Source of the DNA: an uncultured Thiomicrospira sp.
Lineage (GTDB): Bacteria; Pseudomonadota; Gammaproteobacteria; CAKMZV01
Direction: 5' to 3'
NCBI GenBank assembly: GCA_965195345.1
Contig: OZ239628.1
Location: 864,001 to 928,000 of the forward strand
DNA: 64,000 nucleotides
Each line of letters starts with the position of its first letter. Position 1 is the stretch's first letter. Below are positions 1 to 6,633 of the stretch, in pieces. The position numbers and the translations under genes were made by a program. The notes beneath the pieces were generated by a model, which saw only the letters and a program-made list of their open reading frames with translations, was not told the DNA's origin and did no database searches.

Positions 1-342
1 TTTAGGTTGCTTGGGGTGCACGGAAGGAGGTAAGACTTGTGCCGCTCGCCAATGAGCAAAACGTCTAAATTTTCCTTGGTTCACTTCGCATTTATCAACC
101 CATAATTCACCTATGCTTATTGTTTGTGTTGCACGTCTAAACTGATTAAGGAATGTCTTTGAAGAAGTAAGATATGGTAAGTTTTTTTGCAGAATTTCGT
201 CAAGAGGATGTACAAATGTATTTTCTTCTGTGGTAACCTCAACGAGATCAAGAGCGGTTGGAGGAAGATAAATCCAACGCCACCAGATGCTAAAGAGCAC
301 AATAATTATGAAGGTAAGGATGGTGAAAAAACGAAATTTCAT
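1..342 (-). CDS. Membrane-anchored protein, probable FGE-sulfatase (SUMF1/EgtB/PvdO-like) domain; 5' part only, runs off the window edge
   Basis: Not in the ORF track. Translated by hand from the ATG at 342, directly after the upstream TAA at 343-345. It gives 114 open codons: MKFRFFTILTFIIIVLFSIWWRWIYLPP...ISIGELWVDKCEVNQGKFRRFAHW. It has an N-terminal TM helix, and LWVDKCEVNQGKFRRF resembles the FGE-sulfatase F.id..EVTn..y..F motif. Confidence 0.6.
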   Translation of the reverse strand, partial: MKFRFFTILTFIIIVLFSIWWRWIYLPPTALDLVEVTTEENTFVHPLDEILQKNLPYLTSSKTFLNQFRRATQTISIGELWVDKCEVNQGKFRRFAHWRAAQVLPPSVHPKQPK

Positions 343-2103
343 TTAAGCTATAGCAGTTTTTTTCTTTATTCTTTGTAGAAAGAGTAGGAGTGCTACAAGA
401 ATAAACAGCCACATAAATGGGATTATTTGCAGGCGATGATCTTGTTTGCTTAAATCAGGATTGGAAACGGGGAGCTGATTAAGTGCGAGTTGGTTAGGTC
501 CAGCAGCAATGAGTAGGGAGTCGTCTTCCACTGAAGCGTAAATGAAACCCATACTGATGTCTTCTAGTCGGTTGTCAAGGATAGCAACAGGTCGCCATTT
601 CAAATGTGTATTTTGAAATTGTTCAGGATGTACTATTAGCGCATAGCCTTTGGGGAAATCGAGCAGTTCACCCTTATAGAGACTAGGGTAGAGTCGCATC
701 AACATGGAGGGTTGTACGGATTTCGTGTCTTTCAAGTTTTCTAACCATGAAGTAGGTTGGTGAATACGTAGGACATTTTTAGGTAATGGTTGATTGCTTT
801 GAATAAGATATGTATTGTTGTTTTCTTGTAAAAGATTTTCTTTTTCATGTAGTTTGGGGTATGTGTCTGGAACACCTGTATCATAAAGTTGGGATAGTTT
901 TTCAACTAAGGCATAATTTTCAAAGTTGCTTAAATCATCTTTGCTTTTGGTGATACTAAAAAGTAATTCTTTAGCTTGCCTGAGTTCTAAAGTCTGTTCT
1001 TTTTCAGCTAACTTTAGCATGGAAAAAACGTAAGTTAAGATGACGCGATTGTATTGTTCGAGAGGCAGAGTAATAGTTTCGCCACCACCTTGTTGTTTGC
1101 CATTTTCTTGCTGAGATTTGGAATTTGGCACGCGTAGATTGAAAGAGCGCGAGTCACCATTGCCAGCTCCGCCAGTTAATTCAGATGCATCCAGTCCACG
1201 TGATTCTGCCATAGCACCAACTAATGCTTCAAATAAGGAGGAGGGTTTTTGATTGCTTTCTTGTTCATTTCCTCCAGATTGGTTGGTATTTTGTTCGGGT
1301 TGTTGTTCAGCATCTCCTCCTTTCGATGGGGGTAGGAGTTCATCGTATTGCAACGCTTCCATCATTTCAGCATTAGCAAGTTCAGCTCCTGCCAGTTGCT
1401 GATCTTGTTGGTTTTGGTCGCCTTCTCCTTGAGAATTATTCTGATTTTCGCTGGGCTCTAAACCTGCTCCCTCAAGACTTTCTCCTTCAGCGTTATCTAC
1501 TTCTTGTGATTCCTGTGCTTCAATGCCTGCTATTGTTTCATCTTGTAATAATTTGTTTTCTAAGGGCTTTGTTTTTTCACCTAAATAATGCCAATGTCGC
1601 GGTCTTATGTCGTGCTCTTGTAGAATTCCTAAAGCCAAATAGTATTCACTGACCGAATAAACATCAAGGCGAATATTAAGGCGTTCTTCTTTATTTAAAG
1701 AGCGTAGATAGCGATCAAAAGCGTTGTTTTCTCGTAATAATTCGTTGCGATAAATTTTAGTATTTGATTTGAAAATTCGAATATGATTGTTATGCATTTC
1801 CACTATCGGGTATAGGTGCGGTTGACAATCATGTGGTATTGCGCATGAATGATAGTCATGAAGTCGAGCAGGTGGGCTTGATGGTAGATCATTGAAGACT
1901 ACGGAGGTGGCTATCTGACGCGCTAATATCGATGTGAGGTCGTTGTTTTTCTTAATTTCTTCTTCTGCTCTTTTTTGTTGTACGCTGAGTGTGATAATTA
2001 TCAGAATTAGAATGACCGCTACACTGTTTGCCAGTATGTCAGCAAGTGCAACCCCACCTTGAGAGAGGAGGGAAAATGGTTGTGCTTTACGAATTCCACT
2101 CAT
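343..2103 (-). CDS. Hypothetical two-TM protein with MotB/ExbD-like Asp-containing N-terminal helix (586 aa)
   Basis: N-terminal TM ALADILANSVAVILILIIITL, His/Cys cluster HDYHSCAIPHDCQPH, long E/Q/N/G-rich linker and a C-terminal TM followed by RIKKK. Abuts both neighbouring genes. Confidence 0.6.
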   Translation of the reverse strand: MSGIRKAQPFSLLSQGGVALADILANSVAVILILIIITLSVQQKRAEEEIKKNNDLTSILARQIATSVVFNDLPSSPPARLHDYHSCAIPHDCQPHLYPIVEMHNNHIRIFKSNTKIYRNELLRENNAFDRYLRSLNKEERLNIRLDVYSVSEYYLALGILQEHDIRPRHWHYLGEKTKPLENKLLQDETIAGIEAQESQEVDNAEGESLEGAGLEPSENQNNSQGEGDQNQQDQQLAGAELANAEMMEALQYDELLPPSKGGDAEQQPEQNTNQSGGNEQESNQKPSSLFEALVGAMAESRGLDASELTGGAGNGDSRSFNLRVPNSKSQQENGKQQGGGETITLPLEQYNRVILTYVFSMLKLAEKEQTLELRQAKELLFSITKSKDDLSNFENYALVEKLSQLYDTGVPDTYPKLHEKENLLQENNNTYLIQSNQPLPKNVLRIHQPTSWLENLKDTKSVQPSMLMRLYPSLYKGELLDFPKGYALIVHPEQFQNTHLKWRPVAILDNRLEDISMGFIYASVEDDSLLIAAGPNQLALNQLPVSNPDLSKQDHRLQIIPFMWLFILVALLLFLQRIKKKTAIA

Positions 2104-2631
2104 TCATTTATCAATGGTGCGTTTGATGCGCGCAGGTAAATCTTGAAGCCGAACAGTTGACAGTAAATCTTCGTTGGCAATCATCCAGCCAATGCTAATA
2201 ACTTGGTTTGGCCATTTGCTACGCATACAGTTACGTGCTTGCGCCATGGTATTAACGCCGTTATCAAGAATAGCGAATATAAGTTGTTGCTTGCTCGATT
2301 TGGCATATATTTTTTCAATATAACGCATGAATGGATTGTCTGTGGAACAGATTGAGCTTGTTGGAATTGTTTCGTTGGTTTCAATGATTTTTAATTTGTC
2401 AGGGTAGGCGAGGACTACTAATCCTTCGCTGCCGTTTTGCCAAGAAACTTTGTATTTTGCTCCTTCGGTGGATCGGTCAAGCATGGCACGAATGTCTTGA
2501 GAAACAATAAGATTGACAAGAATTAAGATGATTATAAGTAATGCCAGTGCACCACCAAATACTTCAACCATGGGTGCATCTATTTCACTACCAGCAGTGC
2601 GGGATGTGCGTTTTTTTGCCTTAAATGCCAT
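2104..2631 (-). CDS. ExbD/TolR-like single-TM protein (175 aa)
   Basis: Basic N-terminus, then EIDAPMVEVFGGALALLIIILILV, resembling the ExbD IN.TP..DV.LVLL helix with Glu at the Asp position. Overlaps the upstream MotA/ExbB-like gene. Confidence 0.6.
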   Translation of the reverse strand: MAFKAKKRTSRTAGSEIDAPMVEVFGGALALLIIILILVNLIVSQDIRAMLDRSTEGAKYKVSWQNGSEGLVVLAYPDKLKIIETNETIPTSSICSTDNPFMRYIEKIYAKSSKQQLIFAILDNGVNTMAQARNCMRSKWPNQVISIGWMIANEDLLSTVRLQDLPARIKRTIDK

Positions 2632-3685
2632 CTTGAGCTCTTAGACTTTCTTCAATTTGTAGGATGTTTTTTTCTTCCCATCGATACAGTAACGTTTGCG
2701 TTAGAGCAAGAATGATTGAGAGAGAGAGCGCAATTAGAGTGGTATCAAATGCAATACCCAAAGGTTCAAGTGCGTTAGCGAGAAGTTGAGAAAATTCAGA
2801 GTCATTATTTGCCAATATTGCGCTTAGTCCTTCGGTTGCAAGGGATATGCCCAAAACAGTGCCAATAAATCCAAGGATGGGAATTGCCCAATTAATGTAA
2901 CGCGGTAAGATATAAAAGGCTTCAAATTGTGCCCAAATCATTTCAAACAATCCATCGATTTTTTTTGAAGATTTTTGTACCTGAGAGTAGACTTCGTCAA
3001 AGATAGACTGTTTCATGGTTAAATTTTTGAATTCAAAAATGAGGAGAATCCATTTACCAACAAGAATTATCAAGCCCCAATAGAACAGCGATAGTGTGAT
3101 TGGAGGGATAATGCCTCTTTGAATAAATTTTGGGGCAATAGATACGATAAAGCTTATATCAGTTGCTTGCAGCCATGTAAGTGTCAATCCACAAGCTATA
3201 AGTGCAACGCAGAAGCTAATAACTACGGGAGGACCACGTAAAACGTTTTCAATTTCATTGTTAAGGGAAGTAGTGGATTCGATTGTGGTTCGTCTTTGCA
3301 GCAGTATTAGCTGTTGTGTTGCAGCAACAACCAGAGCCAGTAATAGCACTAATAAATGATCGGATATGTTGGGGCGTATATCATTCAAAATAGAACTCCA
3401 AAGACTGCTCGATACTATTACAGTAATAAGAACTAATGCAGTGGTTTGTCCATGCAATGCAAGTTGATGGTAACTGTTTTTTAGAAGGGCAAAAACGCTT
3501 GGGATGGCAAGTATCACACCAAGGAGTGTAATTAAGTATGTCCAGTTGAAGGCGTTAGCTATTATGCCTAAGCACACTATAGGGATGATGGCAGAAATTG
3601 CGTAAGAAACTTTAGGAATGCCAGTCATAGGAGGTGTTTGATTTTGCATATATTTGGTTATTAAATGAATAAGTTTTGAAAACAA
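2621..3685 (-). CDS. MotA/TolQ/ExbB proton-channel family protein with extra N-terminal TM helices
   Basis: C-terminal motifs WAIPILGFIGTVLGISLA and LGIAFDTTLIALSLS. About 8 hydrophobic segments in total. Start is either TTG 3685 or ATG 3649. Confidence 0.8.
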   Translation of the reverse strand: MFSKLIHLITKYMQNQTPPMTGIPKVSYAISAIIPIVCLGIIANAFNWTYLITLLGVILAIPSVFALLKNSYHQLALHGQTTALVLITVIVSSSLWSSILNDIRPNISDHLLVLLLALVVAATQQLILLQRRTTIESTTSLNNEIENVLRGPPVVISFCVALIACGLTLTWLQATDISFIVSIAPKFIQRGIIPPITLSLFYWGLIILVGKWILLIFEFKNLTMKQSIFDEVYSQVQKSSKKIDGLFEMIWAQFEAFYILPRYINWAIPILGFIGTVLGISLATEGLSAILANNDSEFSQLLANALEPLGIAFDTTLIALSLSIILALTQTLLYRWEEKNILQIEESLRAQDGI

Positions 3686-3878
3686 GTTACGCTAAGAATG
3701 TATGCTCTCCCTCTGTAAAGGGGATGCATAAATCCGTATTTTAACTTTTACATCGTATTATAGTGTTCAAAGATTATTAAAGAATTCAAAGATTGTAGTG
3801 TTCGAATTGTACAGTAGAGTAAAATGCGCATGCTTTTAGAAGCAGGTTTTTATGTCAGTAAATTACGCACACTAAATT

Positions 3879-5685: not shown

Positions 5686-6633
5686 ATGATGGTATTGCTT
5701 TGGATGGGGCTTGCATCTTCACTCTCCATTTTTTTAGGTTCAGCGATTGGATTTTGGATGTCAGTAACGTTCGAAGCAGCATTGACTTGTGTAACAGCGT
5801 TTTGCGGTATTTTTTGGTTTGGAGATTTAATTCTTTCTAAAAGAAAGAAAGATGGGAGTGAACCCAAAACAAAGAATGATGGGAGTGAGCCCAAAACAAA
5901 GAATGATGAGAGTGAGCCCAAAACAAAGAAGGATGGGAGTGAGCCCAAAACAAAGAAGGATGGGAGTAAAGACGATAAGGAAAAAAATTACATAAATTCA
6001 TTGGGTTCAATTTTTCCGGTTTTATTCTTTGTCTTTGTGCTTAGATCATTCTTTTTTGAACCGTTTCGAATTCCCTCAGGCTCTATGTTGCCGTCATTGC
6101 ATGTGGGTGATTTTGTTTTAGTGAATAAGTTTGATTACGGCATTCGCTTGCCGATAACAGGAAGTCGAATTTTTGGAAGTGGACAACCTGATAGAGGTGA
6201 TATTGCTGTTTTCCGCTATCCAAATGATCCAGATACGGACTATATAAAACGTATTATAGGGTTGCCTGGAGATCAATTGTCGATAATTGAGGGGCACATT
6301 TATTTAAACGGGAAATCGGTTCCTGTTGATTTTAAAGGCGCTTATAACGGGAAACAACGGGATCTTGTTGGTGGCAGGACAAATTTGAGTTTAGAAAAAA
6401 TGGGCGATAAAGAGTATTCCATTTTAAATTTATCTAAGGGTACTCCTAAACGGTCCATTACTATAACGGTTCCTGAGGGACAGTATTTTGTTATGGGTGA
6501 CAACAGAGACCATAGTAGTGATAGTCGTTATTGGGGATTTTTGCCGGATAAGTTTTTGAAAGGGAGAGCTTTATTTGTATGGTTGAATTGGGGTGATGAA
6601 TTTGACCTTAGCAGAATAGGGACTTCTTTGTAA
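5686..6633 (+). CDS. lepB: Signal peptidase I
   Basis: FEPFRIPSGSMLP (catalytic Ser), DYIKR (Lys) and GDNRDHSSDSRYWG. Follows lepA. Confidence 0.95.
   Translation: MMVLLWMGLASSLSIFLGSAIGFWMSVTFEAALTCVTAFCGIFWFGDLILSKRKKDGSEPKTKNDGSEPKTKNDESEPKTKKDGSEPKTKKDGSKDDKEKNYINSLGSIFPVLFFVFVLRSFFFEPFRIPSGSMLPSLHVGDFVLVNKFDYGIRLPITGSRIFGSGQPDRGDIAVFRYPNDPDTDYIKRIIGLPGDQLSIIEGHIYLNGKSVPVDFKGAYNGKQRDLVGGRTNLSLEKMGDKEYSILNLSKGTPKRSITITVPEGQYFVMGDNRDHSSDSRYWGFLPDKFLKGRALFVWLNWGDEFDLSRIGTSL
5851..5967 (+). repeat. 27-bp in-frame tandem repeat (4 full copies plus a partial) inside lepB
   Basis: Unit gatgggagtga(a/g)cccaaaacaaagaa(t/g) starts at 5851, 5878, 5905 and 5932, with a partial copy at 5959. Encodes DGSEPKTK[N/K]; the third copy has DES. 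Confidence 0.95.

Follow-up and report, generated by a model that had tools for sequence, protein, structure and literature searches.

A conserved four-gene cassette of uncultured Gammaproteobacteria, a candidate ion-driven envelope motor with two unlike axle-type proteins and an FGE-domain protein

The first 3,685 nucleotides of a DNA stretch from an uncultured Thiomicrospira sp. (GenBank assembly GCA_965195345.1, contig OZ239628.1) carry four minus-strand open reading frames (ORFs), which are called here g1, g2, g3 and g4 in the direction of transcription and together form the cassette under study. The whole stretch that was analysed, hereafter the window, is 64,000 nucleotides long and corresponds to G000:C1:864001-928000, where G000 is the source genome, a single contig of 1.92 Mb that is 99.7% complete. 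The g1 and g2 genes overlap by 11 nt (2621-2631), and the g2/g3 (2103/2104) and g3/g4 (342/343) junctions have zero gap. A preliminary description, made from the letters of this DNA, had proposed four tightly packed genes with these overlapping or gapless junctions, and its coordinates are reproduced exactly from the ORF list. The four genes are the following:

2621..3685, minus strand: g1, channel protein of the MotA/ExbB/TolQ type, 354 aa with a TTG start (ORF, Pfam, AlphaFold2 model)
2104..2631, minus strand: g2, small B-type subunit, 175 aa (ORF, conservation)
343..2103, minus strand: g3, large B-type subunit, 586 aa, with a membrane anchor at each end (ORF, model, hydrophobicity)
1..342, minus strand: g4, first 114 of 522 codons in the window, with an N-terminal membrane anchor at 280-336 (ORF, leftward extension)

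The complete g4 gene (G000:C1:862774-864342, 522 aa) continues 1,227 nt past the left edge of the window. When the contig is followed leftwards beyond its 3' side, a tRNA-Met(CAT) is found, then an integrase split into two fragments and then a genomic island, so the operon consists of these four genes and ends there; the cassette itself sits on the chromosome side of the tRNA-Met, outside the integrase-bounded island. The preliminary description had also reported that no TonB, Tol or flagellar gene is visible in the window, which a genome-wide search bears out for the MotA_ExbB, ExbD and TonB_C families, as their other matches, at 0.41 Mb and 1.69 Mb, fall outside the window (0.864-0.928 Mb); the search did not include the Pal, TolB and flagellar families, to which the same statement extended.

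The cassette of four genes is real and conserved. Their order is unchanged in all five related genomes, in 14 of the 15 genome loci found with a g2 profile (which include four of those five genomes) and in 7 of 80 metagenome loci found with a g1 profile, where all 4 contigs that are long enough carry the four genes; the conservation of the neighbourhood, which had been set out as something to check, is thereby established. No fifth conserved neighbour gene was found across the compared loci, whose flanks vary. All named records that carry the cassette are metagenome-assembled genomes of uncultured Gammaproteobacteria. It is present in 4 of 4 searched genomes of the family. Of 400 genomes sampled evenly across the class, 14 match the g2 profile, and most of these are 1.5-2.7 Mb in size. 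In an even sample of the phylum, the same profile matches 0 of 400 other genomes, which marks the cassette as rare and does not imply its absence.

The only genome locus with g2 alone (L032) belongs to genome G130, in which the four genes are scattered, each of them intact and with a strong match: g1 at 0.35 Mb (G130:C1, 347429-348442), g2 at 1.12 Mb (1120113-1120619), g4 at 1.17 Mb (1173853-1175376) and g3 at 1.96 Mb (1959667-1961319). This dispersed but complete set is the strongest genomic sign that the four genes work as a set. Since the genes are kept in small genomes and remain complete when scattered, selection acts on the whole set. This includes the FGE-domain protein g4, rightly grouped with the other three from the beginning, which is co-conserved with them and retained in G130 despite the break-up of the operon. 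In the same genome, the stand-alone g2 lies after a helicase-like ORF of 1,357 aa. LepA is 77% identical to that of the source genome in G004 and 65% in G067, while g4 is 59.9% identical in G067 versus 51.4% in G004 and g1 49% versus 43.6%; the G067 cassette is the closer one despite its LepA, which hints at transfer or at unequal rates.

The g1 protein is made of two parts, which are given below:

3161..3685, minus strand: g1 residues 1-175, extra N-terminal module with five hydrophobic segments (hydrophobicity, model, alignment)
2624..3148, minus strand: g1 residues ~180-354, ExbB/TolQ-like core with three membrane helices and a cytoplasmic helical insert (VIA-align)

The g1 protein has eight hydrophobic segments in total and matches the Pfam MotA_ExbB model (PF01618) over residues 266-345 with 25.3 bits, above the gathering score of 22.9 (E 1.4e-05); in a six-frame scan of the genome, its locus scores 21.7 bits, slightly below the cut-off. 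Its AlphaFold2 model, built with 46 homologues, has a predicted local distance difference test (pLDDT) value of 93.2. When this model is compared with VIA-align, the core superposes on ExbB, TolQ and ZorA with Z scores of 10-11.4 and a root-mean-square deviation (rmsd) of 2.7-3.4 over ~166 residues, which are nearly complete target chains. The best match is ExbB 5sv0_C (Z 11.4, rmsd 2.7, 166 aligned residues), and the top 16 rows and 20 of the 21 top rows are ExbB, TolQ or ZorA. Z scores below ~13 are not decisive for helical proteins in VIA-align, and the match is counted for its coverage of complete chains from a single family and for its agreement with Pfam. The Pfam score and the fold match together uphold the assignment of g1 to the MotA/ExbB/TolQ type. 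The residues that are invariant in 46 sequences fall in the last two membrane helices, T276 in the motif GFIGTVLGI and D314, T315 and T316 in the motif AFDTTL. The first motif, in the second membrane helix of the core, aligns with GLFGTVWGI of TolQ (weak, E 0.0022), and T276, T315 and T316 may line the pore. The N-terminal module, which is poorly conserved in sequence, has no counterpart in ExbB or TolQ. The start of g1 may lie at an ATG at 3647-3649, 36 nt downstream of the TTG, which gives a protein of 342 aa; this fits a 99%-identical database protein of 342 aa.

The likeness of the g1 core to ZorA raises the possibility of an anti-phage defence like Zorya, or of some other mobile conflict system. 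The structural match to ZorA has Z 10.0-10.1, and PADLOC gives weak matches of g1 to ZorA1 (E 0.0011) and ZorA2 (E 0.012); the distribution is patchy (14/400), the flanks are variable and an integrase-bounded island starts just beyond the adjacent tRNA-Met. However, g1 lacks the long cytoplasmic tail of ZorA and ends at residue 354, just past its last helix, g2, g3 and g4 have no PADLOC match, and no ZorC-like, ZorD-like or other nuclease or effector gene accompanies them. Moreover, the tRNA separates the cassette from the island, and the cassette is found in every searched genome of the family and is kept in genomes of 1.5-2.7 Mb. A defence function of this kind is therefore highly improbable.

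The two B-type proteins, g2 and g3, have a similar beginning, in which a membrane helix with an acidic residue comes after a short, basic N-terminal tail:

2497..2583, minus strand: trans-pore-type helix of g2 (IDAPMVEVFGG...), with the Glu23 codon GAA at 2563-2565 (invariance, hhalign)
1969..2058, minus strand: trans-pore-type helix of g3 (GGVALADILANS...), with the Asp22 codon GAC at 2038-2040 (invariance, hhalign)

The g2 protein, which continues with a periplasmic domain of ~125 aa after its single membrane helix, is the best conserved of the four, with 48-76% identity among related genomes versus 31-49% for g3. Its family is very small: clustering at 90% identity gives 36 clusters, and 1.84 billion proteins include 31 representatives of it. 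In genome G257, a g2 match with one in-frame TGA is found at G257:C1:1808838-1809335. Glu23 of g2, in PMVEVF, is invariant in 23 of 23 sequences, and hhalign aligns it to the conserved Asp of an ExbD/TolR alignment of 29 sequences from related genomes (E 0.0028, weak). In g3, L20, D22, L24, A25 and N26 around ALADIL are invariant in 51 of 51 sequences, and Asp22 is placed on the same conserved Asp (E 0.055, not significant alone). Relative to ExbD/TolR, both proteins have the same insertion of four residues after the acidic residue. The acidic residues that the preliminary description had picked out in the helices of both proteins are present and invariant, and they align, with weak scores, on the ExbD/TolR Asp. 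A direct comparison of the g2 and g3 profiles gives E 0.0037, or 0.00085 with a deeper alignment, at a probability of 9-24%, which is suggestive only. Neither protein matches any Pfam, NCBIfam or PADLOC model, and their profiles find only chance rows among solved structures (E > 0.5). In the ESM Atlas, the clusters nearest to g2 are unnamed; the closest one that bears a name, at score 0.78, is annotated as ExbD for 10% of its members and serves merely as a lead.

The g3 protein is much larger, and its AlphaFold model (pLDDT 75.3 overall) describes, after the N-terminal helix, two periplasmic domains that are separated by a linker and followed by a second membrane helix:

1519..1866, minus strand: g3 residues ~80-195, putative TolR-like alpha/beta periplasmic domain (model pLDDT ~90, structure search)
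1162..1509, minus strand: g3 residues ~199-314, acidic Gln/Gly-rich disordered linker (pLDDT < 50; variable, gapped alignment)
454..1146, minus strand: g3 residues ~320-550, second periplasmic domain (pLDDT mostly > 90)
349..447, minus strand: g3 C-terminal membrane helix and short basic tail (model, hydrophobicity)

The invariant residues of the first periplasmic domain are H82, Y84, E102 and H170-W171-H172. The best match of the whole g3 model is the periplasmic domain of E. coli TolR (5by4_A), which ranks first of 48,161 chains and aligns over 93 of 105 residues with an rmsd of 3.7 and a modest Z score of 6.4. This match came from VIA-align, and Foldseek alone gave none with the g3 model at E <= 0.001. 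The second domain has a helical part (348-408) and a beta-rich part (418-540), and no relative of it was found in the whole-protein sequence and structure searches, in which the domain was not folded and searched alone; it is therefore not put forward as a new fold.

The pairing of the two B-type proteins was examined by complex prediction with g3 residues 1-190 and g2. The median score is 0.62 (runs 0.67, 0.46 and 0.62) and the best of three controls reaches 0.24; in the calibration, this mark was attained by 2 of 215 mismatched pairs, as compared with 116 of 157 complexes of solved structure. The partners have a pLDDT of at least 64, and at least 49% of the contacts are common to the runs. 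The predicted interface runs along both membrane helices and also joins g3 residues 148-178 to g2 residues 118-161, which are the best-conserved periplasmic segments of both families. This model, which passes its controls, supports the binding of g2 and g3 as a heterodimer, as had been proposed for two different B-type proteins. The score compares the heterodimer with control partners and does not speak to a preference over g2 or g3 homodimers.

For this reason, a motor with one B-type axle only, most likely a g2 homodimer, has to be weighed, in which g3 would be an accessory protein or a transducer outside the ring, like TolA or TonB; another form of this explanation has two motors, g1-g2 and g1-g3. 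The much stronger conservation of g2 agrees with it, the two anchors and the long linker of g3 fit a tether more than an axle, and pairs with one "active" helix exist, as the first partner in the wider group of related loci described below often has no acidic residue. On the other hand, the Asp and Asn of g3 are invariant in 51 of 51 sequences and stand in the ExbD/TolR register, the predicted contacts of the heterodimer extend along both membrane helices, and g2 and g3 are always retained together, the dispersed case included. Taken with these points, a single-axle arrangement is rather unlikely.

The last protein, g4, has two FGE-sulfatase stretches (PF03781, E 2.4e-41) behind its N-terminal anchor, so its description as a membrane-anchored FGE-like protein holds for the full length. 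Its sequence matches in the PDB are FGE/SUMF, OvsA and CalU17 (E 5.6e-08 to 6e-05). Catalytic FGEs need a copper-binding pair of cysteines near the C-terminal end of the domain. In 19 g4 orthologues, no conserved cysteine pair follows the GG motif in either domain, a test that uses the motif as generally known, since the alignments to catalytic FGEs did not reach this part of the protein at residue level. Cysteines are invariant at two positions only, C147 and C262, both in domain 1, and domain 2 has none. Because the conserved pair is missing, g4 is probably a binder and not an enzyme. A sulfatase-maturation operon was set aside on the same ground; the sulfatase genes of the genome were not searched. 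Two further single-domain FGE-sulfatase genes are found in the source genome (G000:C1:1454731-1455456 and 1062920-1063621, in frames of 262 and 344 aa), and both outscore either g4 domain on the Pfam model. Genome G257 has 8 matches to the g4 profile, which indicates many FGE-domain paralogues.

The presence of an FGE-fold protein next to a motor had led to a comparison with GldK and GldJ, and the cassette could in principle be a gammaproteobacterial analogue of the core of the type 9 secretion system (T9SS) and gliding machinery (GldKLMN). In both cases, an ion-driven motor (GldL/GldM in the T9SS, a proposed one in the cassette) is encoded next to an FGE-fold protein that is non-catalytic (GldK/PorK) or probably so (g4), and g4 has a weak match to the GldK model (E 2.3e-07). 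This match has 30.5 bits against a cut-off of 350, and the EgtB and SenA models score higher, with g4 far below the cut-offs of all three. GldK and PorK are lipidated, whereas the g4 anchor has no cysteine, so g4 is not a lipoprotein but a membrane-anchored protein. No outer-membrane or GldN-like partner is conserved nearby, and g1 has the ExbB/TolQ fold; the homology is limited to the FGE fold. The comparison is useful as an analogy and fails as kinship, and a T9SS-type function is very improbable.

The g4 protein could also be the input and not the output of the system. The cassette would then be an envelope sensor or a gated channel, in which the FGE-like domains of g4 detect damage or a periplasmic ligand and gate the ion flow through g1 or signal otherwise. 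Non-catalytic proteins of the FGE superfamily serve in signalling as periplasmic adaptors, for example TagR of the H1 type VI secretion (H1-T6SS) pathway of P. aeruginosa (PMC13713981). In addition, the distant locus L065 has a kinase-FGE fusion beside a related MotA-like gene. However, the cassette has no kinase, response regulator or cytoplasmic output domain, its four proteins are all membrane or periplasmic proteins, and there is no conserved neighbour able to carry a signal, so that this explanation is improbable.

TolQ-TolR(-TolA) and ExbB-ExbD(-TonB) are among the known systems closest to the cassette. They share with the cassette the fold of the g1 core and its GxxGTVxGI motif, and the short-tailed single-pass N-termini of g2 and g3 with a conserved acidic residue in the helix; the first periplasmic domain of g3 may be TolR-like. 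The gene order (channel, helix proteins, N-terminally anchored periplasmic protein) is that of tolQ-tolR-tolA. In contrast, TolQR and ExbBD have one partner protein and the cassette has two unlike ones, one of them with Glu for Asp. The insertion after the acidic residue in g2 and g3, the five-segment N-terminal module of g1 and the second domain and second anchor of g3 are further differences, and the third component is a tandem FGE-like protein and not TolA or TonB. No TolA, TolB or Pal is found among the conserved neighbours of the cassette, and the genome has its own ybgC-tolQ-tolR-tolA at 1.69 Mb, away from it. A Ton motor was set aside because the genome has no TonB-dependent receptor (0 matches to PF00593), and its sole match to TonB_C (PF03544), which is below the cut-off, is the C-terminus of TolA. 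Family scans, neighbours and PADLOC show no standard partner from the Ton, Tol, Zorya or T9SS systems next to the cassette.

The AglR-AglQ-AglS proteins of Myxococcus, already cited in the preliminary description, likewise comprise a single TolQ-like protein and two unlike partners of the TolR type. These partners, AglQ and AglS, are typical members of the ExbD/TolR family and act together with the Glt gliding complex, whereas g2 and g3 fail the ExbD model and no gliding genes are conserved near the cassette. A similar layout is described by Williams-Jones et al.: a TolQ-like gene precedes the genes of two unlike partners, both with pore helices that resemble those of TolR/ExbD, and vWA heads are part of the description. 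The ring gene and two unlike partners are common to these systems and the cassette, and distant relatives of g1 show this layout, some of them next to BatA_N. The cassette differs from them by having no vWA domain, by the acidic residue in both helices and by its small, separate family; the words FGE and sulfatase have 0 occurrences in the text of Williams-Jones et al.

Of the 80 metagenome loci that the g1 profile retrieved, the remaining 73 have more distant MotA-like genes. In most of those that reach far enough downstream, the MotA-like gene is followed by two single-pass proteins without a Pfam match. The first partner often has no acidic residue in its helix, and an Asp...Asn motif that resembles the one in g3 is present in the second. 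In hhalign comparisons, these second partners match g2 with a probability of 90.6% (E 1.3e-06, 133 columns) and the N-terminal part of g3 with 76.7%, and the partners of this wider group match ExbD/TolR with 53%. Their neighbours vary (BatA_N, GYF_2, PEGA, Sel1, C-type lectin), and FGE domains are present in a few loci. The cassette thus appears, by profile comparison, to be a compact and distinct branch of a large, little-studied group. The group comprises loci L046-L118, for example L054:4525-7548, L118:5521-8775 and L103:4961-8239, and shares the channel motifs PILGFIGTV and AFDTTL with g1. No description of the cassette was found in the literature; the supplementary files of PMC12204202, which were outside the search, might list such operons.

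The most plausible explanation of these observations, and a reasonably probable one, is that the cassette encodes an undescribed ion-driven inner-membrane motor of the MotAB, ExbBD, TolQR and ZorAB kind, with a heterodimeric axle and a lectin-like output. In this motor, g1 would form the ring, with an ExbB/TolQ-like core that carries pore-lining threonines and a five-segment N-terminal membrane module. By analogy with the motor family, five ring subunits would surround two axle subunits, and ion flow would drive rotation. The axle would be a heterodimer of g2 and g3 and not a homodimer, with the helices of Glu23 and Asp22 side by side in the pore, and the TolR-like periplasmic domains of both proteins would pair above the membrane. 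Through its linker, second domain and C-terminal helix, g3 would make a loop in the periplasm, with each of its two ends fixed in the membrane. The g4 protein, which stands in the gene position of TolA, would expose its anchored tandem FGE/C-type-lectin-like domains as the part on which the motor acts, and it would probably grip a periplasmic ligand, which may be a glycan, peptidoglycan or a protein. The motor would be coupled to g4, and its likeliest cellular role would be the maintenance or remodelling of the envelope in bacteria with small genomes.

Several results weigh against a motor of this composition. The g1 profile has 0 matches at E <= 1 among solved structures, and Foldseek alone gives none for the g1 model at E <= 0.001. 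Neither g2 nor g3 matches the Pfam ExbD model (PF02472) even at E <= 1, and no MotB model is reached; g2 and g3 are for this reason not filed as members of the family, but only as proteins that work like ExbD/TolR. Direct profile comparison with ExbD/TolR in hhalign is weak, with a probability of 10.9% for g2 and 1% for g3, and the g2 profile gives no significant match to the single TolR sequence of the genome itself. The Glu of g2, in place of the canonical Asp, is unusual for the ExbD/TolR family. The TolR match of g3 ties in the wide search with long-helix matches at Z ~6, and three points speak for it nevertheless: none of the other 50 rows listed in the wide search is a globular match, most of TolR is covered, and the family was expected beforehand. 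The anchoring of g3 at both ends is hard to square with free rotation of the ring against the axle, the heterodimer score, as said above, is relative to control partners and not to homodimers, and g4 is linked to the motor by synteny and co-retention only.

It is possible, and is proposed here tentatively, that the cassette represents a new functional class among the Tol/Ton-like motors, in which an asymmetric heterodimeric Glu/Asp axle would turn in a ring of an eight-segment protein and the motor would work on a tandem lectin-like protein of FGE fold, anchored in the inner membrane, that grips a glycan, peptidoglycan or an outer-membrane partner. To our knowledge, three findings are new, namely the register in which the acidic residues align, the heterodimer prediction with its controls and the dispersed but complete set of genes. 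The known outputs of ion-driven 5:2 motors are flagella, nutrient import, upkeep of the outer membrane, gliding, type 9 secretion and a single phage defence, and every new one has so far been informative on the transfer of energy across the periplasm. If the proposed motor exists, it would provide host-associated marine bacteria with reduced genomes with an energised envelope function that no described system provides. An obligately asymmetric axle, with one Glu and one Asp helix, would bear on how two proton sites alternate, and the cassette would add to the known motors an axle subunit with two membrane anchors, one at each end, and a lectin-like output with an FGE fold. It would also be the best-defined member of a larger undescribed group with a ring and two unlike axle proteins, represented by many metagenome loci, and paired unlike axle proteins may be common and overlooked, as this wider group suggests. 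The cassette is compact, with four genes and no other conserved partner, and can be moved to a laboratory strain, which makes the question of the heterodimeric axle directly testable.

Upstream of g1, the following region separates the cassette from a divergent lepA-lepB pair:

3686..3878, no strand assigned: divergent g1-lepA intergenic region, 193 nt (ORF layout)

This region is presumed to hold the promoter of the operon. A scan with promoter and terminator consensus sequences gave no site above the shuffled expectation, and fewer sites than in the shuffles, which is uninformative. No RNA sequencing runs that contain this DNA are listed, and the DNA is present in four runs of one study. The ORF that occupies the position of lepB behind lepA, at 5686-6633 on the plus strand, contains near-identical short repeats (DGSEPKTKN-like units) at ~5850-5960, which come after its first hydrophobic stretch, and the opposite strand has a matching repetitive ORF.

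On the other side of the cassette, the island beyond the tRNA-Met (L002:1-13309, G000:C1:849001-862309) contains, besides the split integrase (two ORFs), a STAND NTPase of 1,250 aa and a patatin-like phospholipase. It also has repeated Gly/Ala-rich fragments, which are followed by small hydrophobic ORFs. Elsewhere in the genome, locus L036 (G000:C1:405935-409258) has a second MotA_ExbB gene of 259 aa, with an ORF of 373 aa upstream and, after it, an ORF of 239 aa that may be MotB/OmpA-like by the look of its sequence.

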